From contig NC_134842.1 of the NCBI RefSeq assembly GCF_965363235.1, positions 20,093,521 through 20,157,520 on the forward strand: DNA of 64,000 bases, in the 5' to 3' direction. Source of the stretch: Mytilus galloprovincialis (lineage: Eukaryota). The notes below the pieces were generated by a model. That model searched no databases, had not been told where the DNA came from, and was given only the letters and a program-made list of their open reading frames with translations. Of this stretch, positions 1 to 46,745 are shown piece after piece; positions within the stretch are counted from its first letter, which is position 1, and each line of letters starts with the position of its first letter. Both the position numbers and the translations under genes were made by a program.

Positions 1-1514
1 ACAAATCACAAAAGCTCAAAGGATTAAAAGGATTAGCATCAGATATGAGTATTCATGGTCCATGCATATCAAGCAAGCATGAGAACTATGATTTTGCAAG
101 CTGTATAAAATGTGATCAGTGGGTATCTCAAGCCCAACCATGGATCTCAAGATCACGTTTGATATGGCCTTCACCTGAACTTATTTCAAACATAACTTCA
201 TGCGGTACTTTATTTGTTCCAATCGGTAATAAGGGATCTACAAATGAGAATCTTCAGTGGCGAATATCATTTTCTGTTGCAGAGAAGATACTGATATATT
301 CTTTCAGTCATACCCAGCTACTATGCTATGCTTTGATAAAGATAGTATTGACAGAAATAGTGAACAGAGAGGAAGATATACAAGGTTTATTGTGTTCATA
401 CTTTCTGAAGACCCTGATGTTTTGGATGTCAGAAGAAATTGAAATATCAGTCTGGAGACCCGACAATATCATTCCCTGTTTTATGGCCTGTTTAAAAAGG
501 TTACTATACTGTATAGAATATTCAACGTTGTTACATTATTTCATTCCTGATAACAACTTGTTCTATTTAAGGTTTAACAGTAAACAGGAGAGCACATTAA
601 TCAACTTCCTAAAACAATCATACCAAAAAGGAATTGAAATTTTCTCATCATCTCAGACTTTACAGGATTACAGAAGATTTCCATGTGAAACTACAAGATC
701 AATGTGTGAAATAACTGTATTAATGCAAATAATTATAGAGAAGATACAGTCACCTTTTCCAAATACCTTACGCATATTGAACACTTTGCTGCATCATTGT
801 AAAACTGATTTATCCAAGGTTATCTTTCAACTGTCAACTGCAAGGGCATATCAAACAGTACCGTTTGGACTACCACATGTAAATAACCCAAGCAATAAGC
901 AGCAATACAAGCTCTACAAACGTGACATGAGCCAGTTGTTGGTTGGTGTACAGTCAGATGCAGTATCAGGATGGCTGCAATTGGCTTCTTTCTTCTATGG
1001 TCACAAAAACTATTTAACATCAACAGATATAATCGATTATACTTTGTCAAAATGTACAGATGAAGCAAGATTGTCAAAGATTTCACTGAAACAGACCAAG
1101 ACACCGAAGCTTATATCACTAGTTAAGAACATACCATCTCGATATTTCGTATTCCACAAGTTTAGATTAAATTCAGTTTTCCCAATGGAACTAAAGTGTC
1201 CTCATGCCTTCAATCCATTGGCCTCAATTAGTTCTCAACCATTTGCACATTTCCTCCGGTTTTTGTGTTGTTACCACCTCCATGACTTTGAATCATGTCA
1301 GTATTGTATAAACAAGTTATTAGAAACAGTTCGTAATTACATTCCATCAAGAGAACGGTATATAGATGTACATGCATATAATTTAATATTACTAGGAATA
1401 GCTTTTCAGATGTTAGGTGACAGAGATTCAGCAAGGAAATATTTTCATATGGCTGCGTATTATGATGAACATAACTTTACATGTGCTGCAATCAGATTGC
1501 ATCAGTTTTGCTGA
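1..1514 (+). CDS. Mab-21 domain / cGAS-like receptor (cGLR) family protein, copy 1. This is the C-terminal roughly 500 aa; the 5' part, presumably the NTase core, lies upstream of the window.
   Basis: The frame is open from window base 3 to the TGA at 1512-1514. The product contains 'LIWPSPE...FVPIGNKGSTNENLQWRISFSVAEKILI', which matches the cGAS/Mab-21 signature recalled from memory ('SWPASTQEGL...YLVPKHAKEG...ETWRLSFSHIEKEIL'). Near the start, 'NYDFASCIKC' resembles the segment around the third catalytic acidic residue ('VDITLALE' in cGAS, 'ITPAFKC' in MAB21L1). The whole copy is collinear with the paralogue at 30239-32907. Confidence 0.75.
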   Translation, partial: KSQKLKGLKGLASDMSIHGPCISSKHENYDFASCIKCDQWVSQAQPWISRSRLIWPSPELISNITSCGTLFVPIGNKGSTNENLQWRISFSVAEKILIYSFSHTQLLCYALIKIVLTEIVNREEDIQGLLCSYFLKTLMFWMSEEIEISVWRPDNIIPCFMACLKRLLYCIEYSTLLHYFIPDNNLFYLRFNSKQESTLINFLKQSYQKGIEIFSSSQTLQDYRRFPCETTRSMCEITVLMQIIIEKIQSPFPNTLRILNTLLHHCKTDLSKVIFQLSTARAYQTVPFGLPHVNNPSNKQQYKLYKRDMSQLLVGVQSDAVSGWLQLASFFYGHKNYLTSTDIIDYTLSKCTDEARLSKISLKQTKTPKLISLVKNIPSRYFVFHKFRLNSVFPMELKCPHAFNPLASISSQPFAHFLRFLCCYHLHDFESCQYCINKLLETVRNYIPSRERYIDVHAYNLILLGIAFQMLGDRDSARKYFHMAAYYDEHNFTCAAIRLHQFC

Positions 1515-3640: not shown

Positions 3641-3769
3641 ATCAATCAATCATTTCACTTCACAGCATGTTTAATATGCCTTTAACTACTGAAATATTTT
3701 AACTACCAAATGAGGAAGTACATGTAATAGTATATAGATGTATTCTGAGAGAATCCATGACAAATGGCC

Positions 3770-14500: not shown

Positions 14501-17500
14501 GAGAGTGACTAGCTTTGATACTTAATGTAGTCTGAGGAGAGTGGTTAGCTTTGATACTAAATGTAGTCTGTGGAGAGTGGCTAGCTTTGATACTAAATGT
14601 AGTCTGAGGAGACTGGCTGGCTTTGATACTAAATGTAGTCTGAAGAGAGTGGCTGGCTTTGATACTAAATGTAGTATGAAGAGATTGGCTGGCTTTGATA
14701 CTAAATGTAGTATGAAGAGATTGGCTAGGTTTGATACTGAATGTAGTATGAAGAGATTGGCTGGCTTTGATACTCAATGTAGTCTGAGGAGAGTGGTTGA
14801 CTTTGATACTAAATGTAGTCTGAAGGGAGCAGCTGGCTTTGATACTAAATGTAGTCTGAGGAGAGTGGCTAGCTTTGATACTAAATGTAGTCTGAGGAGA
14901 GTGGCTAGCTTTAATACTAAATGTAGTATGAAGAGAGTGACTAGCTTTGATACTTAATGTAGTCTGAGGAGAGTGGTTAGCTTTGATACTAAATGTAGTC
15001 TGAGGAGAGTGGCTAGCTTTGATACTAAATGTAGTCTGAGGAGAGTGGCTGGCTTTGATACTAAATGTAGTCTGAAGAGAGTGGCTGGCTTTGATACTAA
15101 ATGTAGTATGAAGAGATTGGCTGGCTTTGATACTAAATGTAGTCTGAGGAGAGTGGCAGGTTTTGATACTAAATGTAGTATGAGGAGAGTGGCTAGCTTT
15201 GATACTAAATGTAGTCTGAAGAGAGTGGCTGGCTTTGATACTAAATGTAGTCTGAAGACAGTGTCTAGCTTTGATACTAAATGTAGTCTGAGGAGGGTGG
15301 CTGGCTTTGATACTAAATGTAGTCTGAAGAGAGTGGCTGGCTTTGATACTAACTGTAGTATGAAGAGAGTGGCTAGCTCTGATACTAAATGTAGTCTGAA
15401 GAGAGTGGCTGGCTTTGATACTAAATGTAGTATGAAGAGAGTGACTAGCTTTGTTACTAAATGTAGTCTGAAGAGAGTGGCTGGCTTTGATACTAAATGT
15501 AGTCTGAAGAGAGTGGCTAGCTTTGATACTAAATGTAGTCTGAAGAGAGTGACTAGCTTTGATACTAAATGTAGTATGAAGAGAGTGACTAGCTTTGATA
15601 CTAAATGTAGTCTGAAGAGAGTGGCTGGCTTTGATACTAAATGTAGTCTGAAGAGAGTGGCTGGCTTTGATACTAAATGTAGTATGAAGAGAGTGACTAG
15701 CTTTGATACTAAATGTAGTCTGAAGGGAGCAGCTGGCTTTAATACTAAATGTAGTCTGAGGAGAGTGGTTAGCTTTGATACTAAATGTAGTATGAAGAGA
15801 GTGACTAGCTTTGATACTAAATGTAGTCTGAGGAGAGTGGCTGGCTTTGATACTAAATGTAGTCTGAAGAGATTGTCTGGCTTTGATACTAAATGTAGTC
15901 TGAGCAGAGTGGCTGGCTTTGATACTAAATGTAGTCTGAGGAGAGTGGCTGGCTTTGATACTAAATGTAGTCTGAAGAGAGTGTCTGGCTTTGATACTAA
16001 ATGTAGTATGAGGAGAGTGGCTGGCTTTGATACTAAATGTAGTCTGAGGAGAGTGGTAAGCTTTGATACTAAATGTAATATGAAGAGAGTGGCTGGCTTT
16101 GACACTAAATGTAGTCTGAAGAGAGAGGCTGGCATTGATACTAAATGTAGTATGAGGAGAGTGGCTAGCTTTGATAGTAAATGTAGTCTGAAGAGAGTGT
16201 CTGGCTTTGATACTAAATGTAGTCTGAAAAGAGAGGCTGGCATTGATATAAAATGTAGTATGAAGAGAGTGGCTAGCTTTGATACTAAATGTAGTCTGAG
16301 GAGAGTGGCTGGCTTTGATAAAACTAAATGTAGTATGAGGAGAGTGGCTGGCTTTGATACTAAATGTAGTCTGAAGAGAGTGTCTGGCTTTGATACTAAA
16401 TGTAGTCTGAAAAGAAGTGGTTACTTTGATACTTAATGTAGTCTGAAGTGATACTAAATGTAGTCTGAAGTGATACTAAATGTATTTTGAAGAGAGTGGT
16501 AAGCTTTGATACTAAATGTAATCTGAAGAGATTGTCTGGCTTTGATACTAAATGTAGTCTGAGGAGAGTGGCTGGCTCTGATACTAAATGTAGTCTGAGG
16601 AGAGTGGCTGGCTTTGATACTAAATGTAGTCTGAAGAGAGTGGCTGGCTCTGATACTAAATGTAGTCTGAGGAGAGTGGCTGGCTTTGATACTAAATGTA
16701 GTCTGAAGAGAGTGGCTGGCTTTGATACTAAATGTAGTATGAGGAGAGTGGCTTGCTTTGATACTAAATGTAGTCTGAGGAGAGTGCTAAGCTTTGATAC
16801 TAAATGTAGTAATAAGAGAGTGGCTGGCTTTGATACTAAATGTAGTCTGAAGAGAGAGGCTGGCATTGATACTAAATGTAGTATGAGGAGAGTGGCTAGC
16901 TTTAATAGTAAATGTAGTCTGAAGAGAGTGTCTGGCTTTGATACTAAATGTAGTCTGAAGAGAGAGGCTGGCATTGATATAAAATGTAGTATGAAGAGAG
17001 TGGCTAGCTTTGATACTAAATGTAGTCTGAGGAGAGTGGCTGGCTTTGATACTGAATGTAGTACGAGGAGAGTGGCTGGCTTTGATACTAAATTTAGTCT
17101 GAAGAGAGTGGCTGGCTTTGATACTAAATGTAGTATGAGGAGAGTGGCTGGCTTTGATACTAAATGTAGTCTGAAGAGAGTTTCTGGCTTTGATACTAAA
17201 TGTAGTCTGAAAAGAAGTGGTTACTTTGATACTAAATGTAGTCTGAAGTGATACTAAATGTAGTCTGAAGTGATACTAAATGTATTTTGAAGAAAGTGGT
17301 AAGCTTGGATATTAAATGTAGTCTGAAGAGAGTTACTGGCTTTGATACTAATCATAGTCTTAGAGAATGGCTGGCTTTGATACTAAATGTTGTCTGAAGA
17401 GAATGGCTGGCTTTGATACTATATTGAGTCTGAAGAGAGTGGCTGGCTTTGATACTATATTTAGTCTGAAGAGAGTGGCTGGCGATGATACTAAATGTAG

Positions 17501-20400
17501 TCTAAAGAGAGTTTTTGGCTTTGATACTAAATGTAGTCTGAGGAGAGTGACTCGCTTTGATACTAAATTTAGTCTGAAGAGAGTTTTTGGCTTTGATACT
17601 TAATGTAGTCTGAAGAGAGTGGCTGGCTTTGATACTAAATGTAGTCTGAAGAGAGTGGCTGGCTTTGATACTAAATGTAGTCTGAAGAGAATGGCTGGCT
17701 TTGATACTAAATGTAGTCTGAAGAGAGTGGCTGGCTTTGATACTAAATGTAGTCTAAAAAGAGTGGCTGGCTTTGATACTATATGTAGACTGAAGAGAGT
17801 GGCTGGCTTTGATACTAAATGTAGTCTGAGGACAGTGGCTAGCTTTGATACTAAATGTAGTCTGAAGAGAGTGGTTAGCTTTGATACTAAATGTAGTCTG
17901 AAGAGAGTTATTGGCTTTGATACTAAATGTAGTCTAAAGAGAGTGGCTGGCTTTGATACTATATCTAGACTGAAGAGAGTGACTAGCTTTGATACTAAAT
18001 TTAGTCTGAAGAGAGTGTTTGGCTTTGATACTTAATGTAGTCTGAAGAGAGTGGCTGGCTTTGATACTAAATGTAGTCTGAAGAGAGTGGCTGGCTTTGA
18101 TACTAAATGTAGTCTGAAGAGAATGGCTGGCTTTGATACTAAATGTAGTCTGAAGAGAGTGGCTGGCTTTGATACTAAATGTAGTCTAAAAAGAGTGGCT
18201 GGCTTTGATACTATATGTAGACTGAAGAGAGTGGCTGGCTTTGATACTAAATGTTGTCTGAGGTGAGTGGCTAGCTCTGATACTAAAATTTAATGAAGTA
18301 TGAGGAGAGTGGCTGGCTTTGATACTAAATGTAGTCTGAAGAGAGTGGCTGGCTTTGATACTAAATGTAGTCTGAGGAGAGTGGCTGGCTTTGATACTAA
18401 ATGTAGTCTGTAGAGAGTGTCTGGCTTTGATACTAAATGTAGTCTGAGGAGAGTGGCTGGCTTTGATACTAAATGTAGTCTGAAGAGAGTGGCTGGCTTT
18501 GATGCTAAATGTAGTCTGAGGAGAGTGGCTGGCTTTGATACTAAATGTAGTCTGAAGAGAATGGTTAACTTTGATACTTAATGTAGTCTGAGGAGAGTGG
18601 CTGGCTTTGATACTAAATGTAGTATGAAGAGAGTGTCTGGCTTTGATACTAAATGTAGTTGAGGAGAGGGGCTAGCTTTGATACTAAATGTAGTCTGAAG
18701 AGAGTGGCTAGCTTTGATACTAAATGTAGTATGAAGAGAGTGGCTAGTTTTGATACTAAATGTAGTCTGAAGAGAGTGGTTAGCTTTGATACTAAATGTA
18801 GTATGAGGAGAGTGGTTAGCTTTGATACTAAATGTAGTCTGAAGAAAGTTATTGGCTTTGATACTAAATATAGTCTGAAGGGAGCAGCTGGCTTTGATAC
18901 TAAATATAGTCTAAAGAGAGTGGCTGGCTTTGATACTAAATGTTGTCCGAAGAGAGTGCCTGGCTTTGATACTATATTTAGACTGAAGAGAGTGGCTCTC
19001 TTTGATACTTAATGTAGTCTTGAATGTTGAAATAATTTATTATATATCTTCACAAATACTGTTACATCACAAAGTATCCCGAAGTGCTTGCAATTTGTTC
19101 TCACATTTTTCATACAGGTTTTGGCATGTCATGCAAATGAAAACACTAGACACGAGCTAACACCAAGTATAAATATTATACGTGTATATCTTTATTTATT
19201 ATAAACTTCATACAGAGAAGGTTATTTAACTTAGCTTACCTCATATAAGGGAGGTATAACATTCAATGACAAGTCCTTGCCATATTTCTCCTAAGTCTGA
19301 TTGGTCTGTAAATAATGGAAACAATACGTAAAAAATAAGATAAACACATGAATAAAATATCATCAAAACAAAGTTATCTATAAAAGAAGTTCTTTTTTAG
19401 CATTAATTGGATTTTTTTTAGGATTATTAAAACCATGTTATGCCCCACTATCAAAAATTAAGAGCTATATATTTTTTGAGAAAACCTATCCTTGAAAATT
19501 TGATAATACTAAAAACATTGCAATAATTTCTGAATCAACCTAACTAAAATTAAATCTCCACACTCGCTCATTTTCTTATGATTGGTCGCTGCTTGGGAGC
19601 TCCTTACTTTTTAGATTATTTATTCTTTTTATTGACTGTAGGCTTTTTAATGGAAATAAAGTACAAAATGGAAGGAGCTAAAAGTTTTTTGGATGCATTT
19701 TCAATGTGTTTTGAATTTGGAACGTCTTTGACAATGTGTTGACGAAACAAATTGTTGTATGAAATCAAAGATATAAAATTATTTCTTTTTTATTTAAAAG
19801 GAATCTTAATTTGAGTTCATTCATTGCAACATTTGGAATAATGACCATTGGTTTGTTTACTGATTTCTATAAATAAAGAAATTTTTGCATGCATTTATTA
19901 TCACAATTTTTATTGAATAAACAAAAATAAAAGTAAAATCATTGTGATTTTATGAAATAAGCTGACAACAAATATATTCATTTGGTATAAGAATGAGACG
20001 GTGTATTGCAATATTCGAGTATTTGCCTTATAAGCATGATTGATGAAAACCTCAAACTAATTTCCGAACTTATATAACCAATTATTAATATGCTCTGTAC
20101 TGTTCCTGTATATGGAATTCAATTGATTAATCATTAGTACAAAGAACTTCAGTTTGCATTATTGATACACACGTCTACATTCATCATAGTATGACTCTTT
20201 AACATTACTCACAATTCATGTAACTCCATATTAATTGTTATATTATCAATACCTTTGTTTTCTTTATTTTCCGATATTTCTCTTTAAGGTTTCTACAATT
20301 AAAAAGGGCCATAATCATCTAATCAATTATGTATTCAATATGTGGATACATTATCGCTGAGAAGTCATTTTAGTTTCAGGTATAAAAACAAACAATTTTT
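8530..20400 (+). repeat. Duplicated or dispersed element (~2.4 kb without the array) that hosts the satellite. Left arm 8530-9020, right arm 19020-~20400.
   Basis: Both arms have a paralogue at 47505-49950 in which the arms are separated by only ~1.3 monomers. Compare 8950-9060 with 48585-48700, and 19020-19330 with 48700-49020. Confidence 0.7.
9020..19020. repeat. Satellite DNA array with a 36-bp monomer (consensus approximately CTAAATGTAGTCTGARGAGAGTGGCTGGCTTTGATA), about 278 copies, with several higher-order repeat periodicities.
   Basis: The 36-bp periodicity is directly visible. Because 36 is a multiple of 3 and the monomer lacks stops in 4 of 6 frames, the ORF track shows long artefactual ORFs ('FDTKCSLRRVAG'n). 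Identical ORF blocks recur at offsets of 1116 bp (9431 vs 10547; 9719 vs 10835), 216 bp (11186 vs 11402), 432 bp (17619 vs 18051; 14525 vs 14957) and ~796 bp (16410 vs 17205). The 3' part (17300-19015) is more heterogeneous. Confidence 0.95.
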
Positions 20401-24149: not shown

Positions 24150-25075
24150 AAAATGATGTGGTATGATTTCAAATGAAACTACTCTCCACTAGAGACCAAA
24201 CGATGCAGGTGTGGTATAATTGCGAATGAGACAACTCTACACTAAAGGCTAACCCATGTAGATATATAATGTAGTATGATTGCAAATGACACAACTCTCA
24301 ACCATAGACGTGCAAATGATGAAGATTTGGTCTGATTGCCAAAGAGCTCTACATTAGCGACCAAATAATGAAGATGATGTATGATTGCAAATGAGACAAC
24401 TCTCCATCAGAGGTCTCTCATAGAGATGAGGTATGATTACCTATGAGAAAACTCTCCCACAGGAAGCAAATGATATAGATGTGGTATAATTAACAATGAG
24501 ACAACTCTCACCAGGAACCAAATGATATAGATGTGCTATGATTACCAATTAGACAACTCTCACCAGGGACCAAATGATATAGATGTGGTATAATTACCAG
24601 TGAGACAACTCTCCGTCAGAGACCAAATGTAGAAGATGTAGTATTTTACTAATGAGACAAATCGCCATCAGAGACCAAATGGTGTACATATTGTATAATG
24701 ACCAGTTAGACAACATTCCACTTTAGACTAAATGATGAAGATGAGGCTTGATTACCTATGAAAAACTCTCCCCCCAGGGACCAAATGATATAGATGTGGT
24801 ATAATTACCAATAAGACAACTCTTACCAGGGACCAAATGATATAGATGTGGTATTATTACCAGTGAGACAACTCTCCATTAGAGACCAAATGAAGTAGAT
24901 GTAGTTAGTTACTAATGAGACAAATCTCCCAAAGAGACCAAATGGTGCAGATGTGGAATGATGGTCAGTGAGACAACTCTCCACTGTAGACTAAATGGTG
25001 TAGATGAAGTATGATTACCTATGAGAAAATTCTTTTCCAGTGTCCAAATGATGAAGACGGTTTAATTTGTATCAG
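24150..25075. repeat. 52-bp tandem array, about 17 copies, derived from the 5' head of a SINE family ('gatgtggtatgattaccaatgagacaactctccaccagagaccaaat').
   Basis: A 52-bp period is seen (24471 to 24523 to 24575). The same head motif occurs as a single copy at 45000-45045, 47965-48010, 48262-48300(-) and 63020-63060(-). Confidence 0.8.
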
Positions 25076-25221: not shown

Positions 25222-27146
25222 TGTTAGCGGCAAAAAGTGAAATTATACAATAAGCTTAAATCCTAGGCAACAAGCTAACGCCTAGGCATTAAGTTATTGC
25301 CTGAAATTTTCAGGCATTAAGCTTATTACCTGAAATCTTATGATGATTATTCATTCTATTGCCGAACATAATTTTAGGCAATAAGTGAAATCTGGAATGA
25401 ATGCTTATTTGGTGATTTATTCTTGATATAAAGGAGTTACTTAATTTATTTATTTCTTATATAATTTCTTATACAATTCAAAATTTGGTGACTATGTGGA
25501 ACGCATATATCCCATCGAATTGGAGATAAAGGATACTACAGATACAGTTAAGTCGGCTTCATATCTTGACTTAGATCTAGAAATTGACAATGAGGGTCGG
25601 TGGAAAACAAAACTTTACGACAAAAGAGATGATTTCAGCTTTCCAATTGTGAACTTTTCATTTCTAAGTAGCAACATTCCAGCAGCACCTGCATACGGAG
25701 TATATATCTCCCAATTGATACGATATTCCCGTGCTTGCATTTCCTATCATGATTTTCTTGATAGAGGGTTACTGCTCACAAGGAAGCTATTAAACCAAGA
25801 GTTCCAAATGGTGAAGTTGAAATCATCCCTACGTAAATTTTACGGACGCCATCATGAGTTGGTTGACTGTTATGGAATAACCGTTTCACAAATGATATCG
25901 GATATGTGTTTCACGCCGTAACTACAATCCCCTTCCCTTCCATGAATGTGACCTACCGAATTAGACTATTTACCGGATTTGTAATCACATAAGCAACACG
26001 ACAGGTGCCACATGTGGAGCAGGATCTGCTTACCCTTCCGGAGCACCTGAGATCACCCCTAGTTTTTGGTGGGGTTCGTGTTATTTTGTAGTTTTCTATG
26101 TTGTGTCATGTGTACTATTGTTTTTCTGTTTGTCTTTTTCATTTTTAGCCATGGCGTTGTCAGTTTGTTTTAGATTTATGAGTTTGACTGTCCCTTTGGT
26201 ATCTTTCGTCCCTCTTTTATATAACATGTGTAAATATACATTCATTTGCCAGATCTTCTAATTTAGTTATTTATGTAGTAATTAGACAAAATTAAAATGT
26301 GATTTTTTTTGCTTACACAATTTTTCAGGTTTTTTTTTTTATAGGATAAGTAAATTTTCTTTATTAACAGTTTCACAACTTGTAATAACAAAATTATTTG
26401 AACACAAATTTTTATCAAGTTTTCATATTTTTAGATTGTTATTTTGATATAGATAACATATCTTATTAGTGATTTTATTTCCAGTCCGTTGTGGAGTGAT
26501 GTGACACTTCCATTTCAGCTCCCTCAACGCATGAGTTTACTGATAACTTTTTGCAGTTAGTTTGTTCAATTCTAATATAAAACGTAGTTATATTTTTACG
26601 AATGTTTTGTTTCATAGAGTTTACCATGTACAAATTATTATAATTCAAAACTAATATTTATTTTCTAATAGTTAGTCGGTTTTTAAATTAAAGTTGTTTG
26701 CTAAATAAGATACAGTATTATTTTTTTTCATTTGCTATTTTTTTTTACGTCAATACGCGGCTATGACATCTAGCTACGATAATCCTTAGATAGCTTCAAT
26801 GTGCATGCTGAGACATGTCGTAAGTCGGTCCTAACTTTATCATAATTTCTGTCTAAGAATATCTTATAGGATCGATCTCGGGACAGTTTCGATAAACAGA
26901 CCCCAGTTCTTATAATGTTATTATTTTACAAATAAATTGTTATTTAAATGAATAAATGTCTTTTATTTACTCGCATTTATATTTTAGGCATTAAGCTTAA
27001 TGCCTGCACACATTTTTCAGGATTTAATCATAAATCCTAGGATTTATTACTAATGCCTATCATTTAGGCAATAGAGTTACTGCCTAGGCGTTAGCTTATT
27101 GCCTAGGATTTGAGCCTAATGCCTAATTTCACTTATTGCCGCTAAC
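25222..27146. mobile_element. Non-autonomous DNA-transposon-like element with ~70-110-bp terminal inverted repeats, flanked by (TA)n. It carries the LINE fragment 25483-26235 internally.
   Basis: The left end 'GTTAGCGGCAAAAAGTGAAATTATACAATAAGCTTAAATCCTAGGCAACAAGCTAACGCCTAGGCATTAAG...' (25222-) is the reverse complement of the right end '...CTTAATGCCTAGGCGTTAGCTTATTGCCTAGGATTTGAGCCTAATGCCTAATTTCACTTATTGCCGCTAAC' (-27146). Both sides are flanked by 'atatatatat'. Internal sub-repeats include 'ggcattaagcttaatgcc'. Confidence 0.6.
25483..26235 (+). mobile_element. 5'-truncated non-LTR retroelement copy from the same family as 2928-3640 (RT C-terminus plus 3' UTR).
   Basis: ORF 25496-25921 'RIYPIELEIKDT..YLDLDLEIDNEGRWKTKLYDKRDDFSFPIVNFSFLSSNIPAAPAYGVYISQLIRYSRAC...'. 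The 3' tail 25922-26235 is the reverse complement of 2928-3247. Confidence 0.8.
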
Positions 27147-27839
27147 ATATATATATAATTTCGTAATTTTGCCAAACTCTGCATATATGTGTTTTTAGAC
27201 AATTTGTTATTTGTTGAACATTTAAATTAAAGGTTCTCCTGTATTCACAAAATCCAGAAAAAAAATTGTTACATATGACCAAGAATGAATCCTTAGTAAA
27301 ATGCAAAATCTATGACTTTACATGTTAAAAATATTGACAGGCTTGACTGGTAATATCATGGCTTTAACATAAAGATGTTATTATAAGAAATAAATGCCTC
27401 TTTTAAAATTTAACAGGGTTGCGTTCTGGCTGCCTGTGTATATATCTCAAGTGTGAAATGCTTTTGTGCTTCATACAGATAGCTTTAGATAGCTCAGACT
27501 CGGGTGTTCATTGCATATGCCGAAATTGTTATTTTTTTTATTTTGAAACCTTACAAAAGGTTAATCAATTTTACAAATTTTTATATGAAGTATTGTTTTA
27601 TGCATACTAGCTGTAAGTGAATTTTTCAATTTGAAAGTACATATAATATCAAGGAATCTGCAATTCTTATATTAGTATTTTTGATTGTTGAATGTCCAGT
27701 AGCAATTATTTAATGCATATGTAGAACCACTAGTATCCAAAGGTTGAAAATAAGATGTTAAGGAGTGTAAACTTTTGAACCTTATTTCTACTTTAATGTC
27801 AATGTATACGTACTATTTATAATGACAACTTCAGTATGT

Positions 27840-29030
27840 ATACTAAAGAAATTTATCCTGTTGAACTTACTTTAAATAAAGCTAATACTAACAATAACCC
27901 CTGTACTTTCCTCGATCTGGATATCTATATTATTAACGGAAAGCCTAATACAAAAATGTATGATAAAGGAGATGATTTTTCATTTCCTATAGTTAACTAT
28001 CCATTTTAGAGGGTGACGTTCCCTTGTCACCATCTTATGGTGTTTATATATATCAACTTGTACGATTCGCTCGTGTACGTAGCACAGTATTAGATTTTAG
28101 CGATATAAATTATTGATATCACAAACTAGTTAAAACATTTACTAAATGTTATCATCGGTAGATGGAAATGATTCGTAAATATAACTCAACATGCAGACAT
28201 CTTATACGTTCAGGTATTTCACATCCAATCTTTTATGGTTATATTCTTTACAAAGCCAAACAATATCAGTATTAACCTCAAAAGCTAACAAAACCTTTAA
28301 ACAGACTTATAAAGAAGTAAAATAGTTACGATGCTGTTGTCAGGTCATTAAAGATAAAATATTTTAGTTTTAATATTGATTCACTTTTAGGGTCTTTGCA
28401 TCGGAATTAAACACATTTATTCTAAAACATGTTGTTGGCATGACACGGGTTATGTTCTTCTCATATATTTCATGATGGTATGATACTAAATCCCTAACAG
28501 GAGGGTTGTGTCTGATATTCATATGATGAAGACATAATCTTTCAATCAGTTTGTTTGAGGTCTGGAGCTGGCATGTCAGTAACTGCTAGTAGTCTGTTGT
28601 TATTTATGTATTATTATCATTTTGTCTATTTTCTTTTGTTTCATATTCTGACATCGGACTCGGTCTCCTCTGAGTTTTACTGTGCGTATTGTTGTGCGTT
28701 TGTTTTCTATATTGGCTAGGGTATAGGGGGTGAGTTGAGATCTCAAAAAACTCCGTCGCAATTTTGCGCCTGTCCCAAGTCAGGAGCATCTGGCCTTTGT
28801 TAGTCTGGTAAGATTTTTGATTTTAGTTTCTTGTGTAAAAATCGGAGGTTAGTATGCCGTTCATTATCACTAAACTTGTATGCATATTTGATTAGGGGCC
28901 AGCTGAAGGACGCCTCCGGGTGAGGGAGTTTCTAGCTACATTGAAGACCCATTAGTTGCCTTCGGTTGTTGTCTGCCCTATCGTCGGGTTGGTGTCGCTT
29001 TGACACATTCCCCATTTTTATTCTCAATTT
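27840..29030 (+). mobile_element. Degenerate copy of the same retroelement (RT C-terminus with stop codons, plus the 3' tail).
   Basis: 'EIYPVELTLNKANTNNNPCTFLDLDIYIINGKPNTKMYDKGDDFSFPIVNYPF*' with in-frame stops. The tail 28540-29000 matches 35880-36370. Confidence 0.55.
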
Positions 29031-30238
29031 TATCTAAAATATTTAGAAAATTAGCTAGATACAACCTTAAGATAGAGTGTGTAATGGTATGTGACTTTAT
29101 GCATATCTAATGCATTAACCAAAGTATGACCAGTGGAAGCAAGCAAAAAAATATTTCCAATGGGGGATAATGAAATAAATAATGTATCATTCAATCTATC
29201 ATACTATGTAAATATGTCATATTTAAATGAATAATTGAATAAATGTAAGATGTGAAACTGAAACTAAGTGATCTTTTTGTTTCAGTCAGGGGAAACATTT
29301 CTTAGTTCAAGCTTCTGTACAAGTAGACATCATTAAGTTGTTTTATAACAAAGTATGGAAAATGTCTATTATGATAAAATTTGTTATAAAAATTTCCTCA
29401 TTTAAAGAAATTATTAAAATAGAATTCTATGAAAAGTAGTACATTAAATACAAAATTTATGAAATAGCAAACAAGGAAAAGTTGTTGAAGAAGACTTTGA
29501 TTGTATCTTAGAATTAAGAGTTATTTCAGTTAACATAGTTAAAACCTTAAACTAAAACATCCTGCCTGATCAAGTTGATATGTCGATAGTAAAATATTTA
29601 AAAAAAACCAAACAGTCAACCTACAAAGCGAAAGGGTGTGGGTGGTTCCAAAAAAACATGTGCCTGCTTCATCAGAAATATACATAAGAAATTAATATCA
29701 AAAACAGAAAGACTACATTCGATAAGTTTTAAATAGAACATTGCTATCTCCAAACTTGATAACACAATTACCATCTCAGACAATATGTAAAATAAACTAT
29801 TTTGTTTATTTTACAGAAAATATTATTAATTTTACAGGAAATATTGTTTATTTTACAGGAAAGTCAAGAAAATCAACATTTATACTATTACAAGGATAAA
29901 CTAATATTTAGACTATGATACAGTACAAGAAACCAAACAACCAGTACAAGGATAAAGAACAATCGAGAAAGTTATACAGTACCAATTAGAAATCATTAAA
30001 AAAAATAGAGGAAAATATTGGACAATTTGACAGGAACATCTAGAAACCATTACAAGGACAGAGAGAATATCTAGACAAATATACAGTACCAATTAGAAAC
30101 CATTACAAGGATAAAGAATAGTAGGACAACTATATACAGGATCGTCAAACAGAAGCCATCAGAAGGAAGAAGAGAAAAAAATCTGGAAAGTAGTGCAGCA
30201 TCATTGTACTATTTATAATCCCTACAAAATTAAGAACA

Positions 30239-32907
30239 ATGTCTCACAGTAAAACGGAATGTTTATATTTTTATAAATATTTGTGTCAGAAAATTGGATC
30301 AGAGAAAGTTGTAAGCGCTAGACGATTGACATCTATAAGTAGATATTTTACAATGTCGGGCAGAATTATCCCTCATATAAGCAGTGGAAGTAAGACAGAA
30401 GGACTGGATCTTAAAGGTAGTGATACTGATATTATGTGTATTGATCCTGCATTTATAGTATATAAATCAGATAAAGATGTTGTCCAGAATAGAAGGATAG
30501 CATTAGTAATGGATACCGAGGACACACCACCGTGTTTTACACAACTACAACCATATACGAATGTAAATAACTTACCAAACGTCTATAAACAACAGCTACA
30601 ATACCACGGAAGAAAAATCCTACTTTCAAGTGAGCTTTACAAGTCACAAGCATTAAAAGAAATACAAGATATATCTCCAAAGACAAAAGGAAAACGCATA
30701 TTCATGTTTCATGCGTATCGGACATTGATGATAATTTTGATTAAGCAATGTGCCTTAAATGTGATTAGTGGTTATGGCAGGCACAACCATGGATATCTAG
30801 ACCACGTTTAATATGGCCTTCACCGGAAATTATTTCAAAAATAACTGCATGCGGTACTCTATTTGTTCCAATTGGTAACAAGGGATCTATACACGAGAAC
30901 CTTCAGTGGCGAATATCCTTTTCTGTCGCTGAGAAGATATTGATATATTCTTTCAGTCATACCCAGCTTCTATGCTATGCTTTGATAAAGAGATTATTGA
31001 AAGAAATAGAAAATGAAAGGGAAGACTTCAAAGATTTATTGTGTTCATACTTTTTGAAGACCCTTATGTTTTGGATGTCAGAAGAAAATGAACCATCAGT
31101 CTGGAGACCAGATAATATCATTCCATGTTTTATGGCCTGTTTAAAAAGGTTACTATACTGTATAGAGTATTCAACGTTATTACATTACTTCATTCCTGAT
31201 AACAACTTGTTCTATTTGAGGTTTAACAATAAACAAAGGAACACATTAATCAACTTCCTAAAACAATCATACCAAAAGGAAATTCAGGTTTTCTCATTAT
31301 CTCAGACTTTACATGATTACAGATGATTTTCATGTAAAACTACAAGATCAATGAGTGAAATAACTACAACAATAAAAACAATGACAGAGTACAAACACTC
31401 ACCTATTTAAAAAATCTTAGGCTTATTGATCACTTTGCTGAATCATTGTAAAACTGAATTATCCAGATGTATCTTTCAGATTTCTTTTGCAAGTGCATAT
31501 CAAATAATACCTTTTGCACTACCACAAATAAAAAAAAACAACCAATAAACAGCAATACAATTCTACAAACATGACCTCAGCCAGTTGTTGGTTGGTTTAC
31601 GGTCAGATTCAAGATCAGGGTGGCTGATATTGGCCTCTTTCTTCTACAGTTACCAAAAGTATTTAACATCAACAGATATAATCAATTACACTTTGTCAAA
31701 AGGTACAGATGAATCATCTTTATCAAAGATTACACTGAAACAGAAAAAGACACTGAAACTAATATCTCTACTACCAGCACCATATGTTTCATTTTACAGG
31801 ATGACATTTATTTCAGTCATCCCACTGGAACTAAAGTCTCCTCATGACTTTGGTATGGCGGTATTTATAAGTTCCATACCATTTGCACATTTCCTCCGTT
31901 TTCTGTGTTGTTACCATATACAGGACTTTGCATCAAGTAGGTATTGTATAAATAAATTGTCAAAGTCAACTTGTTCTATTTAAGATTTAACAATTAAAAG
32001 ATCCTAAAGAAAACATACCAAACAGGTATTCAGATTTTCTCAATTTCTCAGACTTTACAGGATTATAGAAGATTTACATGTGAAACTATAAGATCAGTGT
32101 GTGAACTAGCTATACAATAATGAAAATCATTGAAGAGAAGACAGAGTCACATTTTGTTAACAATTTACTACTCATAGTGAACATTTTAATGCATCATTGT
32201 AAAACTGACTTATCCAGAGTTATATTTAAACGGTCAGTTGCAAGGATATATCACATAAGGCCTATTGTTCTACTACATGTAAATAACCCAAACAATAAAC
32301 ACCATTACAAACTTTACAAACATGACTGCAGCAAGTTGTTGATTGGTGTACAGTCAGATGCAGGTGGCTGATATTGGCATCTTTCTTCTACAGTCACCAA
32401 AATTATGTAACATCAATTGATATAATCAATTATACTTTGTCAAAATGTACCGATGAATCATCTTTGTCAAAGATAACACTAAAACAGACGAATAAACTGA
32501 TATTCATATCACTATGTGAGACGCGTCAAACTTAATTTGTCTCATTAATGAAGTTTTTGATGAAATTAGTCATTCCAATGGAACTAAAGTCTCTTTATGA
32601 CTTTGGTATATTTGTAGTAATAAGTTCCATATCATATTCACATTTCCTACGTTTTCTGTGTTGTTACCATCTCCATGACTTCAAATCAAGTCGGTATTGT
32701 ATAAATATGTTATTAGAAACAGTAAGTGAATACAGTCAGTCGAGAGAACAAAAAGCATTTGAAAATGTATATAATTTAATTCTACTAGGAATAGCTTTAG
32801 AGATGTTAGGTGAGAGAGATTTAGCAAGAAAATATTTCCATATTGCTGCAGATAAAGATCCAGATAACTGTATATGTGCTGCATTCAGACTGTGTCAACA
32901 AAGCTGA
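30239..32907 (+). pseudogene. cGLR / Mab-21-domain nucleotidyltransferase paralogue, copy 2. The N-terminal NTase core is intact; the C-terminal half is disrupted.
   Basis: The N-terminal ORF 30239-30811 carries 'HISSGSKTEGLDLKGSDTDIMCI', the pol-beta NTase motif GS-x10-DxD with the same spacing as cGAS GS212/E225/D227. A nucleotide-level alignment to copy 1 shows three defects: a net +1 frameshift near 30720-30755 (CAG in copy 1 corresponds to TAG here at ~30753), a nonsense codon AGA to TGA at 31324, and further stops at 31407, 31536 and beyond. Segment ~31200-31975 is tandemly duplicated as ~31975-32560. The last ORF (32548-32907) still aligns to the C-terminus of copy 1 ('HFLRFLCCYHLHDF.S..YCIN.LLETV...NLILLGIA..MLG.RD.ARKYFH.AA'). 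Confidence 0.65.
31200..32560 (+). repeat. Internal tandem duplication, two diverged units of ~0.6-0.78 kb, inside cGLR copy 2.
   Basis: The copy-1-like stretch 'NNLFYLRFN...QTLQDYRRF.CET.RS.CE..' appears at 31200-31340 and again at 31975-32100. 'LVG.QSD...GWL.LASFFY...Y.TS.DII.YTLSK.TDESSLSKITLKQ' appears at 31585-31760 and again at 32330-32490. Confidence 0.6.
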
Positions 32908-34839
32908 AGCCTGAGCGAGGACAAAAACACAATCACTGTAAACACTAGACGTAGAATAGAGTGTAGCTCATTTTTTTATAACTTTTCTCAACTTTCAAAT
33001 TACACAAATATTTTGGTCAAAGACAAAAGTTTTTAAAGTAATTTCTATGCCATATATGAATTCACCCATTAAGTATTGGATTTTCACACATATACTTGTT
33101 ATTCACCTGTAATCATATTTAAAAAAGAAGGTATGCTAACAGCCATTATCTGGTCCCTGAAATTCTAAAAATATAAACAATAAACAAGTCTTTCAAAATC
33201 AATGAGCATGCTGTTATAATCAGAAAGCTGTAGTGATGAAAGGACAGTTATGATGTCACTTTGATGTCAGTAACATATTTGACCTAAAAAGGACCAATTG
33301 CACACAGATTTTGGATACAATAGATATGAGCCAAGGTCTTACCAATAAAAATATAGTTGACACACATTAACATCTTTGTAAAATACATCTAGTAGCAAAA
33401 TATCTGTTATGGTAAAGCCTTAGTTAATATAAAAAATAAATGAAATTTCAAAATGAGGCTCTATTTGCAATTTTTGCAACTTAATTTTGAAGCACAAATA
33501 TAAATGTGTATGTCAAAATTCTTAATATCAATACTGATGTTTGACAGATTAAAGTTTTACAAAAGTTAAAGAGAATATTTTTTTTGGTAGAGTTTTAATA
33601 TTTCTTGATTTTCGATTTGAAGGGGTAAAAAAAGTGACCATATATCATTCCTCCTCCTTTCACATTGTTTTAGATAATAATTATCTAATTTTGTCATAAT
33701 GAAATAACCATGTACCTTTAGTAAATGTCATTTAGTTTTTAAGGTGGTACACAACTCTACATGGATATAACTCTGTAAAAAGCAGCTAAACATTTTAATC
33801 CCGTTCTATTGTAAAAAAATTATTTAGCTTGTCTATGATCAAAAATAGTGTTTGTCAAACTGATATAAATCCAAAGAATTTTTTTCAATTAAGTCTGTAG
33901 TTCAAAGTAAATATTTTGTAAATTTTTTTTATTTTTTTTTATTAAAATCAAACCAGCAAAATTAATTTGAGTCAAGGTGTTTGGTACCACCCTAAAGTCA
34001 ATAAATTGTTTAACTTTACAGCATTTATAATTATATGCTTATAATGATGTACATTGTTGTATAGTTTTAGAGTCAATAAATAATTTCTATACACAGTATG
34101 TTCAATATGCCTTTAATAACTGCAATATATTAACTACTGAATAAGGAAGTACATGTAATAGTAAATAGATGTATTCTGCGACTAGTTTAACATAGTAGTC
34201 TCATGTCACGGTGTTAAAGTGAAGTTCATGATAGCATGAAATATAGCAGACAGATTATCACAATTAAGGATGTTTGCTACTACTCTCGTTTATAATAAAA
34301 TGCCTCTGAAGAGACTGTGTTATATTGATAGTTATATAAACAACAGAACCATTAAATGTGCTTGTAAGCACTGAACATAAAGATTGCGTTAATTTATCAG
34401 TTTGAAGTAAAATTAAATATTGCATTATCCATACATCATTGGCTGTAGTTGATGCAGTTAAAATTCTGGACAACAGGAGATAACTCTAATCTTTAAAGAT
34501 GACTTTAACAATGACATCATTTATATCTTTAGAACAGATATTAGATTTACGCACCTTGTTAAAAGTTATTTTCTTGACAAGTGTAACATCGTTTTGTGAC
34601 TTGAATATTTGAGCATATATTACATTGATTCATTTCTAGATAAGTTCATGGCCATGGATATGATGTTTAAAATGTTATGATTAATGCACTGTATTTTGTG
34701 TATTTAAAAGGTAGTCATTACCCTTTGAAGATTTAGATATCAGTCAGTAACATAGTTTTTTTTATTGCGTTTCATGCATTCTTTACCCCAAAAATCAGGA
34801 AAAAAAAGGTCTGTCATTTTTTAGTAGCAATAAACAAAA

Positions 34840-36370
34840 AAACTATGTTAATTGGACATGCTTTGATACTATATATGCCCTCGAATTTTTACTAGATAAC
34901 ATTTTTGTTCGCTTTGGGGATTCCGTATATCGTCAGATTATCGGAATTCCAATGGGGACTAACTGTGCACCACTTATTGCGGACCTCTTTTTGTATTGTT
35001 ATGAGTTACAATTTATGACAAAAATAAGCAAAGAACCATCAAAACAACATCTGATAAACAAATTTAATAATACTTTTAGATATTTGGATGATATTTTGGC
35101 TCTCAATAATGACGACTTCAGTATGTATATTAATGAAATTTATCCTGCTGAACTTACTTTAAATAAAGCTAATACTAACAATGACCACTGCCCTTTCCTC
35201 GATCTTGATATCTATATCACTATTGGAAAGCTGAATACTCAAATTTACGATAAAAGGGATGATTTTTCATTTCCTATCGTTAATTATCCGTTTTTAGATG
35301 GTGACGTTCCCTTGTCACCATCTTACGGTGTTTATATATCTCAACTTGTACGATTCGCTCGTGTATGTAACAATGTTTTAGATTTTAACGAGAGAAATTT
35401 ATGTATTACTGAAAAATTATTACACCAGGGTTTTCGATATCACAAACTAGTCAAAACATTTACTAAATTTTATCATCGGTATAAAGACATCATTCGTAAA
35501 TATAGCTCAACATGCAGACTTCTTATACGTTCAGGTATTTCACATCCATTTTTTATGGAAATATTCTTTATAAAGCACAAAGGTGTCAGTATTCACCTCA
35601 GAAACTTACAAAACCTTTGAATAGACTTATTAAGAAGGGATATAATAACGATACTGTTGTCAAGTCATTAAAGATTGCATATTTTGGCGTTAATATTGAG
35701 TCACTGATAAGGTCTTTGCGTCGGAACTAAACACATTTATTCTAAAAACAGTTGTTGGCATGACACGGGTAATGTTCTTCTCATATATGTTATGATGGTA
35801 TGATACTAAACCCCTAACGGGAAGGATTGTGCCTGATGTTCATATGATGAAATCATAATCTTTCAGTCAGTTTAATGGAAGTCTGGAGCTGGCATGTCAG
35901 TTAACTGCTAGTAGTCTGTTGTTATTTATGAATTATTGTCATTTTGTTTATTTTCTTTGGTTACATCTTCTGACATCAGACTCGGACTTCTCTTGAACTG
36001 AATTTTAATGTGCGTATTGTTATGCGTTTACTTTTCTACATTGGTTAGAGGTATGGGGGAGGGTTGAGATCTCACAAACATGTTTAACCCCGCCGCATTT
36101 TTGCGCCTGTCCCAAGTCAGGAGCCTCTGGCCTTTGTTAGTCTTGTATTATTTTAATTTTAGTTTCTTGTGTACAATTTGGAAATTAGTATGGCGTTCAT
36201 TATCACTGAACTAGTATATATTTGTTTAGGGGCCTGCTGAAGGACGCCTCCGTGTGCAGGAATTTCTCGCTACATTGAAGACCTGTTGGTGACCTTCTGC
36301 TGTTGTTTTTTTATTTGGTCGGGTTGTTGTCTCTTTGACACATTCCCCATTTCCATTCTCAATTTTATGT
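34840..36370 (+). mobile_element. Retroelement copy with the longest surviving RT ORF (34952-35620), followed by the family's 3' tail (35880-36370).
   Basis: RT motifs 'FVRFGDSVYRQIIGIPMGTNCAPLIADLFLYCYE' and 'FRYLDDILALNN' (YxDD-type motif C), then '...YDKRDDFSFPIVNYPFLDGDVPLSPSYGVYISQLVRFARVC'. The 3' tail 'tggagctggcatgtcag...cctgtcccaagtcaggagcctctggcctttgttagtc...' recurs at 28540-29000, 4640-5150(-) and 46470-46745(-). Confidence 0.7.
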
Positions 36371-40974: not shown

Positions 40975-41415
40975 TGTAAATGTTATTCACTTCATCAGGT
41001 TCATACAGTTATTTCCTAGTTCTGTAATTCACGTCTGACATCAGGTTCATACAGTTATTTCTTAATCTATAATTTCACTTCATGTTCATACAATCACATC
41101 CTAGTTCTGTAATTCGCTTCATCAGATTCATACAATTATTTCATTGTTCTGTAATTTCACTTCATCAGGTTCATACAGTTATTTCCTAGTTATAAATTCA
41201 CTTCATCAGGTTCATACAGTTATTTCCTAGTTCTGTAATTTCACTTCATTAGGTTCATACAGTTATTTCCTAGTTCTGTAATTTCACTTCATTCGGTTCA
41301 TACAATTATTTCCTAGTTTTGTAATTCACTTCATCATGTTCATACACTTACTTCCTAGTTCTGTTATTTCACTTCATTAGGTTTATACAGTTATTTCCTA
41401 GTTTTGTAATCTAAC
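40975..41415. repeat. 43-bp tandem repeat, about 10 copies (unit approximately GGTTCATACAGTTATTTCCTAGTTCTGTAATTTCACTTCATCA).
   Basis: Direct inspection of the sequence. Confidence 0.85.
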
Positions 41416-46469: not shown

Positions 46470-46745
46470 TATGTGAGCCTCTGGCCTTTGTTAGTCTTGT
46501 ATGATTTTAATTTTTAATTTTAGTTTCTTGTGTATAATTCGGAGTTTAGTATGACGTCCATAATCACTGAACTAGTAACATATTTGTTTAGGGGCCAGCT
46601 GAAGGACTCCTCCGGGTGCAGGAGTTTATCGCTGCATTGAAGACCCATTGGTGGCCTTTGGCTGTTGTCTGCTCTATGGTCGGGTTGTTGTCTCTTTGAC
46701 TCATTCTCCATTTCCATTTCCATTCTCAATTTTATTCATTGGACA
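46470..46745 (-). mobile_element. Retroelement 3'-tail fragment.
   Basis: 'ctctggcctttgttagtcttgtatgatttta...ggggccagctgaaggactcctccgggtgcaggagttt...' matches 36120-36370 and the reverse complement of 4640-4900. Confidence 0.55.

Follow-up and report, generated by a model that had tools for sequence, protein, structure and literature searches.

The locus and its gene family

The window, i.e. the whole 64,000-nt stretch of Mytilus galloprovincialis DNA that was analysed (contig NC_134842.1), contains two genes of one mytilid family on the forward strand. Copy 1 lies at its left edge and copy 2 spans 30239-32907. The features discussed below are:

3..1514, forward strand: copy 1, putative Mab-21/cGAS-like receptor gene, 3' 503 codons and TGA (open frame, Pfam, family identity)
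29722..30238, forward strand: sequence upstream of copy 2, homologous to that preceding intact Mytilus family members (blastn)
30239..30692, forward strand: 5' piece of copy 2, an ATG and ~150 open N-terminal codons in frame 2, ending at a frameshift (ORF list, nucleotide alignments, indel catalogue)
30700..31199, forward strand: conserved cGAS-like core of copy 2, frame 1 (alignments, codon analysis)
31200..31966, forward strand: unit A, family codons ~318-575, continuous with the core (alignment, indel catalogue)
31964..31969, forward strand: out-of-register junction (alignment, tblastn frames)
31967..32907, forward strand: unit B (31967-~32719, family codons ~318-575 again), C-terminal TPR-like tail and the family's normal stop (tblastn, alignment, indel catalogue)
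32908..34039, forward strand: native 3' flank of the family, aligning with that of copy 1 (alignment)

Members of the family are encoded by a single exon of ~640 codons. The protein consists of a cGAS-like nucleotidyltransferase core and, after it, a C-terminal extension that is helical and TPR-like. Each of the six homologous CDSs that we examined forms one uninterrupted exon, of 1881-1947 nt. We find 599 homologues carrying PF03281 and PF20266, nearly all from Mytilus. Fragmentary models are common in the family; of the 120 best hits, 21 fall short of 560 aa.

In copy 1, frame 3 stays open from nt 3 until it reaches the TGA at 1512-1514. All 503 of its codons inside the window are uninterrupted, which agrees with the first-pass annotation; the first ~134 codons, including the N-terminus, fall outside. 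Both Mab-21_C (PF20266, 55.4 bits) and Mab-21 (PF03281, 29.6 bits) score above their gathering cut-offs of 24.1 bits each, and the tail contains a weak TPR_2 match. In PF03281 only profile positions 125-196 are matched; the N-terminal half of the mussel nucleotidyltransferase domain is too divergent to match the Mab-21 model. Copy 1 is 67-71% identical to Mytilus proteins of 626-648 aa, it has D165, and it keeps 43 of the 43 family-invariant residues inside the window. It appears to be a separate old paralogue, 30 kb upstream of copy 2, that still looks functional.

Of the intact homologues P0002 is the closest, with 71% identity to copy 1. Its AF2 model (pLDDT 79.5) is predicted to have the bilobed cGAS-like fold, as the top Foldseek hits in the PDB are cGAS, Cv-cGLR1 (8gjw) and Sp-cGLR1 (8gjy), with E about 3e-10, TMt 0.65-0.72 and about 385 columns. 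With phmmer, the match to 8gjy has E=7e-12. Among 60 family sequences G50, S61, D62, D64 and D165 are invariant while S49 and S51 are present in at least 90%; the assignment of these positions to cGAS catalytic residues follows the sequence pattern and, for D165 only, the phmmer alignment. From this homology, the family can be described as putative cGAS-like immune receptors. Extreme cGLR/Mab-21 radiations of more than 200 genes have been reported in other bivalves (Li et al. 2023, PMC9980059). The Mytilus family resembles them both in its very large size and in that copy 1 and the pieces of copy 2 carry Mab-21 NTase and Mab-21_C. Unlike cGAS, however, the mussel proteins carry ~250 additional aa at the C-terminus, a helical extension in which the TPR signal is weak. 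A full-text literature search combining Mab21, Mytilus and cGAS returned no papers.

Structure and lesions of copy 2

Both flanks of copy 2 are those of the family. Upstream, blastn aligns window 29722-30114 to L001 9469-9833 at 71% identity, while L004 9263-9669 corresponds to window 29380-29786 and L004 from 9711 onward to the window from 29940 onward. Downstream, 32908-32988 matches 1515-1595 of the copy 1 flank and 33198-34039 matches 2130-2943; in this long block substitutions are found at 18.7% of the aligned sites, with 27 gap openings in 886 columns.

Between these flanks copy 2 is homologous to copy 1 but broken by a frameshift, nonsense codons and a repeated block, as the first-pass annotation had recognized and as tblastn confirms. 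Residues 17-439 of copy 1 align to 30700-31959 in frame 1 with five in-frame stops. Residues 176-239, 240-329 and 324-501 then match a second time, at 31941-32114, 32117-32389 and 32365-32898, in frames 3, 2 and 1, respectively.

The 5' piece carries the family-invariant SGS...GSDxD motif (here SGS...GSDTD), and D165 is also retained in copy 2. The frameshift is caused by an extra 5 nt (11 nt relative to copy 1) at about 30681-30692, in a length-variable linker. Measured as the distance TCACAA...CATGGTCCATG, copy 1 and P0002 have 42 nt here and P0003 and P0005 have 48 nt, while 53 nt is found in copy 2 only. Past the frameshift the out-of-frame ORF continues to a TAA at 30809-30811, giving 190 aa; an exact-sequence look-up of this N-terminal ORF gave no record.

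The core contains two stops, TAA at 30742-30744 and TAG at 30766-30768, and the invariant HGP motif has become HVS. It had been proposed that a 7-nt length difference between 'gataattttgattaagcaatgtgcc' and 'gattttgcaagctgtat' (30720-30745) shifts the frame and thereby turns a CAG of copy 1 (117-119) into a TAG at ~30753. The CAG does correspond to the TAG, although at 30766-30768. But the stretch from ATTCATG (51 in copy 1, 30700 in copy 2) to CAG/TAG-TGG (117 and 30766) is equally long in both copies and in six Mytilus homologues. As the length change lies upstream of this equal-length stretch, the TAG is not a product of the frameshift but a separate C>T change that creates a stop in the homologous frame.

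In unit A, the change of AGA to TGA was placed correctly in the first-pass annotation (31324-31326). It is followed by TAA 31408-31410, by a +1 in a poly-A run at ~31530 and by a -1 at ~31558, and the TAA at 31546 sits in the shifted stretch between these two indels. At 31966/31967 the family codon jumps back from ~575 to ~318, so that ~770 nt are present twice. The junction joins the equivalents of copy 1 positions ~1326 and ~551 directly, with no DNA between them, and the reading frame changes here. A 28-mer across the junction has no exact match in the metagenome contigs scanned. The unit B piece has its own lesions: two stops (TAA 31995 and TAA 32533), deletions of 18 nt at ~32001 and of 7 nt at ~32362, and a frame change at ~32115. 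Its last ORF, 32548-32904, matches TPR_2 in Pfam at 23 bits and runs to the normal stop of the family, TGA 32905-32907.

In total, copy 2 has six stops by substitution, five or more indels or junctions that change the frame, and an 18-nt deletion. It is homologous to the family over its full length, keeps the native flanks and is disabled several times over in the homologous frame; as judged from its sequence, copy 2 is a real, unprocessed and rearranged pseudogene of the mytilid Mab-21/cGAS-like receptor family. A retrocopy origin of unit B was also considered and rejected, since homology to the copy 1 flank extends for over 1 kb beyond the stop and the family has no introns in any case.

Could copy 2 instead be functional, with introns taking out the frameshift, the stops and the repeated block to leave a continuous ORF? 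The first-pass annotation had left an intron model open for the 5' defect, and an AG does precede TGG at 30767-30768 and at the equivalent place in copy 1. We consider this hardly credible. The six homologous CDSs examined lack any interruption, and in seven intact genes the AG is the end of a CAG/AAG (Gln/Lys) codon inside the conserved CLKCD(Q/K)WVSQAQPW. At least six separate introns would be needed, conserved residues would be deleted, and the change of HGP to HVS would remain.

An assembly or sequencing artefact, with two paralogues or haplotypes wrongly joined at 31966/31967 and homopolymer errors behind the indels, is more conceivable but still quite unlikely. Mussel genomes are highly heterozygous, filled with paralogues and rich in presence-absence variation (PMC7653742), and two of the indels have the typical pattern of long-read errors, with the +1 at ~31530 inside an A homopolymer and an AAA shortened by the -1 at ~31558. 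However, six of the stops are base substitutions and the 5-nt, 7-nt and 18-nt indels lie outside homopolymers. Assembler mis-joins are also expected at homologous, in-register positions, whereas this junction is out of register and joins pieces without shared sequence, each with lesions of its own.

The two units are not a recent duplication

The first-pass annotation described a recent tandem duplication of ~0.7 kb. The head-to-tail repetition is indeed there, covering 31200-31966 and 31967-~32719, as an intragenic tandem duplication would give. What does not fit a recent origin is the distance between the units. A and B are 74.9% identical by BLAST; over 687 ungapped columns the value is 78.6%. 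Their alignment opens 13 gaps, and in no 120-nt window does their identity exceed 0.90. The p-distance between A and B is 0.214, compared with 0.191 from A to copy 1, 0.202 from B to copy 1, and 0.185-0.243 to intact M. edulis and M. trossulus genes. Thus the units, about 21% diverged, stand as far from each other as either does from copy 1 or from intact genes in other Mytilus species, which argues against a recent internal duplication.

Neighbor-joining (NJ) trees of the unit from gap-free alignment columns are star-like and poorly supported. In the 5' half B is placed with copy 1 (69%), while A falls with P0003/5/8 (81%). Support for A with B is only 60% in the 3' half, and over the whole unit the two are not grouped. 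Some motifs are common to A and B, but strictly shared derived sites number only four, the same as the background. Changes unique to B outnumber those unique to A (87 vs 53, p=0.004) with P0002 as outgroup, but not significantly with three other outgroups; the private changes of B lack a third-position excess and their codon-position usage is flat.

The two genes are not a recent pair either. They differ at about 18-19% of nucleotides, and the dS of the core between copy 1 and copy 2 is 0.415, higher than that from copy 1 to four of five M. edulis or M. trossulus genes (0.21-0.31) and below that to P0002 (0.50). By these distances, copy 1 and copy 2 are old paralogues.

The reading of the first-pass annotation, that a recent internal duplication, a frameshift and nonsense codons pseudogenized one member of a recently duplicated pair, is therefore extremely improbable. 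It is right about the lesions, the repeated block and a loss that is late relative to the age of the copies. However, with the distances between the units and between the genes it could be rescued only by massive gene conversion of the units from other paralogues.

Constraint and the timing of the loss

Several measures suggest that the divergence built up while coding constraint still held. Measured against intact genes, the core of copy 2 has an omega of 0.15-0.24, indistinguishable from that of pairs of intact genes, which fits only a short unconstrained period, and 49 of the 53 family-invariant residues are kept. Simulated neutral decay since an in-situ duplication gives 11-14 expected in-frame stops in the two units, compared with four observed (P=0.001-0.012), a test that hinges on the assumed substitution model. 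Judged from its stop count, copy 2 would have diverged neutrally by only about 3-5% after constraint ended. Per kb, A has 2.4 gap openings and B has 7.4, compared with 30 in the alignment of the flanks, which evolve neutrally in both lineages. Disabling lesions, in turn, amount to about 5 per kb in each of the two pieces. Taken at face value, the data support a loss of constraint that would be rather late, given how old copy 1 and copy 2 are. So the earlier claim that one member of a duplicated pair has been lost survives in its timing, but not in the recency of the pair.

Origin of the out-of-register junction

We suggest that copy 2 probably, though by no means surely, is an out-of-register junction of pieces of two old paralogues that decayed afterwards. 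The two ~770-nt units would then come from paralogues that were already ~20% diverged and both still under coding constraint, when a non-homologous event joined the pieces out of register. The simplest such event would be a deletion that removed everything between codon ~575 of one gene and codon ~318 of its downstream neighbour. The fusion, or lesions near it in time, could have inactivated both pieces, each of which would have accumulated ~3-5% neutral change since. Unequal homologous crossing-over is different, as it would give an in-register hybrid, whereas here the junction is out of register and a segment is present twice.

Rearranged members elsewhere in the family argue for such a fusion. 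One of them is P0001, an open M. galloprovincialis model of 755 aa with a different partial internal duplication, in which aa 40-190 correspond to 293-443. As the repeated block differs, P0001 was rejected as an orthologue carrying the duplication of copy 2. A locus with the two parental genes side by side was not found among the loci examined; tblastn of six Mytilus loci (+-10 kb) revealed neither extra family fragments nor a two-gene parental arrangement.

A different history, which we regard as rather unlikely, is an ancient partial tandem duplication in situ, where the ~770-nt block doubled head to tail soon after copy 2 arose. This could have been followed by long decay, or by long survival as a C-terminally truncated protein with B drifting as 3' UTR. 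The geometry is exactly that of a tandem duplication, and the weak grouping of A with B in the 3' half and their common motifs favour it and speak against the fusion. So do the faster change of B relative to A and copy 1 and the absence of a third-position bias, as expected if B was never translated; the longer branch of B would fit a unit unconstrained for longer than A, while a single simultaneous inactivation predicts otherwise. However, as the distance between A and B equals or exceeds those from A and from B to copy 1, the duplication would have to be nearly as old as the whole subfamily, and there is no excess of derived sites uniting A and B. Unit B has only two stops, where neutral evolution from that time on would predict 6-9 (P=0.007-0.057), and its density of indel events is about half of that of one neutral lineage as judged from the flank. 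Finally, the low core omega would be unexplained if the whole gene died at the duplication. The out-of-register fusion followed by decay is for these reasons our preferred explanation.

Gene death and possible reshuffling in the family

The death and rearrangement of copy 2 are an ordinary outcome in a very large gene family with fast turnover. They resemble the unprocessed pseudogenes and chimeric relics of immune clusters under birth-and-death evolution (cf. Gerdol et al. 2020, PMC7653742), as copy 2 is a member of a tandem cluster with both flanks, frameshifts, nonsense codons and a rearrangement. The significance is limited, as this is one gene death in one cluster of a huge and rapidly evolving bivalve innate-immune family, and it opens no long-standing question. 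It can be speculated, although we think it unlikely, that the out-of-register joining of paralogue fragments recurrently reshuffles the C-terminal helical module of the family, a putative ligand- or partner-binding module. If so, copy 2 would be a failed product of this reshuffling, and open 755-aa models of the P0001 type would be its survivors.

For annotation, copy 2 should be flagged as one pseudogene and not as two or three short ORFs. It also gives a reason for caution, as a repeated block within a gene need not be a recent duplication; here the interpretation changed because the units were compared with homologues from outside the window. Elsewhere in the window, three repeat-associated ORFs have no Pfam match, and the interspersed repeats are up to 93% identical to copies in M. 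trossulus.

Gene family and fold

Copy 1, a cGAS-like receptor gene (3-1514, + strand), has an open stretch of 503 codons in frame 3, running from nt 3 up to its TGA stop (1512-1514), and its first ~134 codons lie beyond the window edge. A search with its protein gave 599 proteins with E <= 0.001, in a family almost confined to Mytilus mussels. The best matches (67-71% identity) come from M. edulis, M. trossulus and M. galloprovincialis. All of them contain the Pfam domains Mab-21 (PF03281) and Mab-21_C (PF20266), some bear the NCBI name "cyclic GMP-AMP synthase-like receptor", and six of the eight top matches are 626-648 aa long. Copy 1 itself exceeds both Pfam gathering thresholds, and its tail gives a weak TPR_2 signal.

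By sequence, the nearest solved structures are cGLR1 (8gjy, E=7e-12) and cGAS. In the AlphaFold model of P0002, the closest intact homologue (pLDDT 79.5), the first ~390 residues superpose on solved structures of cGAS, Cv-cGLR1 and Sp-cGLR1 (TMt 0.65-0.72). The C-terminal ~250 residues are predicted to form an extra helical domain. Six homologous coding sequences from M. edulis, M. trossulus and M. californianus are each a single uninterrupted exon of 1881-1947 nt, i.e., the family coding region is intronless.

Disruption of the 5' part of copy 2

Copy 2, the paralogue at 30239-32907 (+ strand), starts at ATG 30239, aligned with the start codons of Mytilus genes. The first-pass annotation described it as broken by a frameshift and nonsense codons while copy 1 stays open; this holds, and the nonsense codons made by substitution lie in the homologous frame. 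However, the frameshift differs in both place and size from the 7-nt length difference that had been proposed. From ATTCATG (51 in copy 1, 30700 in copy 2) to the CAG/TAG-TGG (117 and 30766), the length is the same in both copies and in all six homologues. The length change is instead in the upstream linker, whose length differs between intact genes without loss of frame: the TCACAA-CATGGTCCATG distance is 42 nt in copy 1 and P0002, 48 nt in two further family genes (P0003 and P0005) and 53 nt in copy 2 only, with the extra length at about 30681-30692. The N-terminal ORF therefore continues out of frame to 30811 (190 aa). Homology resumes in frame 1 from 30700, where there are five stops, four of them created by base substitution.

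Lesions in the 5' part and unit A of copy 2
30742, + strand: stop TAA, base substitution (copy 1 has TTT)
30766, + strand: stop TAG, base substitution (copy 1 has CAG)
31324, + strand: stop TGA, base substitution (copy 1 has AGA)
31408, + strand: stop TAA, base substitution
~31530 and ~31558, + strand: +1 in a poly-A run and -1, seen in the alignment of unit A
31546, + strand: stop TAA between these two indels

The TAA at 31546 lies between the +1 and the -1 and is thus a product of the shifted stretch. The reported TAG opposite a CAG of copy 1 is real, but it lies 13 nt from the earlier position (~30753) and does not result from the frameshift: as a substitution in a frame-1 stretch of unchanged length, it is an independent nonsense mutation. 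The AGA to TGA change at 31324 is confirmed. In addition, the family-invariant HGP motif is HVS in copy 2.

An intron ending at the AG before TGG, which had been left open as an alternative, is rejected. This AG is the end of a CAG/AAG codon in the segment CLKCD(Q/K)WVSQAQPW, which is conserved in seven intact genes without introns, and the model needs splicing at six or more places, removing conserved residues.

A gene segment present twice

At 31966/31967 the alignment of copy 2, having reached the equivalent of copy 1 position ~1326, returns to ~551, so family codons ~318-575 are present twice.

Repeated segment and lesions of its second occurrence
31200-31966, + strand: unit A, family codons ~318-575
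31967-~32719, + strand: unit B, family codons ~318-575 for the second time
31995 and 32533, + strand: stops in the unit B region, from the in-frame stop scan
~32001, + strand: 18-nt deletion in unit B, from the alignment
~32115, + strand: frame change in unit B, from alignment/translated homology
~32362, + strand: 7-nt deletion and frame change in unit B, from the alignment

Unit B runs on into the C-terminal tail and the normal stop (32905-32907), and the 3' flank beyond shares homology with the copy 1 flank. The junction at 31966/31967 is out of register and substitution-type stops occur in both pieces, which makes an assembly mis-join unlikely.

The ~0.7-kb tandem block noticed earlier thus exists, but its supposed recency does not fit the distances. 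BLAST aligns A and B at 74.9% identity with 13 gap openings. Over 687 gap-free columns common to A, B, copy 1 and six Mytilus genes, the p-distance is 0.214 for A-B, 0.191 for A-copy 1 and 0.202 for B-copy 1; to five M. edulis/M. trossulus genes it is 0.185-0.199 from A and 0.223-0.243 from B. Neighbour-joining of these columns gives a star-like tree in which A and B do not group over the whole block. In the 5' half B groups with copy 1 (69%) and A with P0003/P0005/P0008 (81%); A groups with B in the 3' half alone (60%). Four sites have a state exclusive to A and B, as many as for arbitrary pairs (e.g. M. californianus and copy 1), and a scan along the units found no 120-nt window with A-B identity > 0.90. 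Judged by these comparisons, the block is not a recent duplication.

Probable divergence in living genes and a proposed origin of copy 2

Several results point to the A-B divergence having accumulated in living genes, not in dead DNA. An out-of-frame duplication of 770 nt would have killed or truncated the gene at once. A neutral simulation (kappa 1-4) in which each unit evolves by 0.126 substitutions per site, half of the JC-corrected distance between A and B, predicts 11-14 in-frame stops in A and B, and four are observed (P=0.001-0.012); if B alone were neutral, 6-9 are expected in it and two are seen (P=0.007-0.057). A random single-base change in the copy 1 ORF yields a stop in 6.65% of cases. 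Judged from the stops actually present, neutral divergence after constraint was lost is only about 3-5%, with similar estimates for the 5'+A piece and for B; each of these two pieces has about 5 disabling lesions per kb overall. Against intact genes, the dN/dS of the conserved core joined to unit A (30700-31199) is 0.15-0.24, indistinguishable from intact-intact pairs (0.14-0.40), and copy 2 keeps 49 of 53 family-invariant residues. With P0002 as outgroup, copy 1 and unit A have 66 private changes each. Indel events relative to copy 1 number 2.4 per kb in A and 7.4 in B, versus 30 between the two homologous 3' flanks, which are neutral in both lineages.

We suggest that copy 2 most likely consists of two already diverged paralogues joined out of register. 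The paralogues would have diverged first, a non-homologous event would then have joined them, in the simplest case a deletion that took out everything between codon ~575 of one gene and codon ~318 of its downstream neighbour, and the composite would have decayed afterwards. The main rival, rather improbable in our view, is a very old partial duplication in situ, possibly with a truncated upstream gene that long survived. It could explain the weak grouping of A with B in the 3' half, the flat codon-position spectrum of B and its longer branch (87 vs 53 private changes, p=0.004, with P0002 as outgroup; not significant with three other outgroups). All three also fit an earlier death of the gene that donated B.

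Copy 2 is an unprocessed, rearranged pseudogene in a birth-and-death cluster of putative immune genes, a finding that is real but ordinary. Extreme cGLR radiations have been described in bivalves (PMC9980059), and a dead, rearranged member is expected there; such a pseudogene is likewise expected in mussels, whose genomes are known for the presence-absence variation of their genes (PMC7653742). The family has many fragmentary and rearranged models: among the 120 best matches, 21 fall short of 560 aa. P0001, an annotated, open M. galloprovincialis gene outside the window (755 aa), contains an internal partial duplication of another segment: aa 40-190 and aa 293-443 are repeats of each other, with about 80% identity to the matching P0002 segment. 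Out-of-register rearrangements therefore recur in the family.

Relationships between the paralogues

The two copies had been taken for a recently duplicated pair. They differ by about 18% across 1270 nt, and their core dS is 0.415. When copy 1 is compared with five M. edulis/M. trossulus genes, core dS is lower for four of them (0.21-0.31; P0003, P0004, P0005 and P0008) and 0.50 for P0002. By these distances they are evidently not a young pair.

At synonymous sites the nearest gene to copy 1 in the core (50-550 of copy 1) is M. trossulus P0003 (dS 0.21), and in the C-terminal unit A (31200-31966) is nearest to P0005/P0008 (dS 0.24-0.28). As the relationships differ by gene segment, recombination or gene conversion among paralogues is suggested. 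Upstream of copy 2, collinearity with the region upstream of M. trossulus P0004 (LOC134681645; locus L004) extends over about 7 kb.

Collinear blocks, window and L004
22945-24823: L004 938-2798
27147-27818: L004 7311-8667
29041-29786: L004 8673-9669
29940-31958: L004 9711-11742

Identity is 84-87% in the non-coding blocks but just 77% in the coding region, which suggests positional orthology with a coding part that may evolve faster or as a mosaic.

Repeats and satellites

The window is AT-rich (G+C ~32%), with abundant satellites and interspersed repeats. Between the two copies lies a ~10 kb satellite (9017-19020, degenerate edges from ~8860) of 277 copies of the 36-bp unit AAATGTAGTCTGAAGAGAGTGGCTGGCTTTGATACT, with 88% matches, no indels and strong strand asymmetry (GC skew about +0.48). 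An unclassified interspersed repeat (27819-29033, 35106-36368, 4634-5153 in reverse, 46475-46735) lies on either side of copy 2 in direct orientation at 83% identity, and its copies in L004 (17862-19416) are up to 93% identical. The copy at 27819-29033 looks like an insertion in the window's lineage, because it splits sequence that is contiguous in L004 (8667/8673). A 289-aa ORF at 34751-35617 has no Pfam match.

The youngest repeat pair in the window is inverted (2947-3614 and 26218-25555; 668 bp, 95% identity). Its ORF fragments (3251-3649, - strand; 25445-25918, + strand) have no Pfam match, and M. edulis and M. trossulus loci contain copies at 88-92% identity.

Tandem arrays
24264-25052: 52/105-bp minisatellite, with similar arrays near an M. 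edulis or M. trossulus homologue
40986-41410: 43/85/127-bp
50417-50709: 31-bp, G-rich, 94% identity
58704-60224: 87/174-bp, about 1.5 kb
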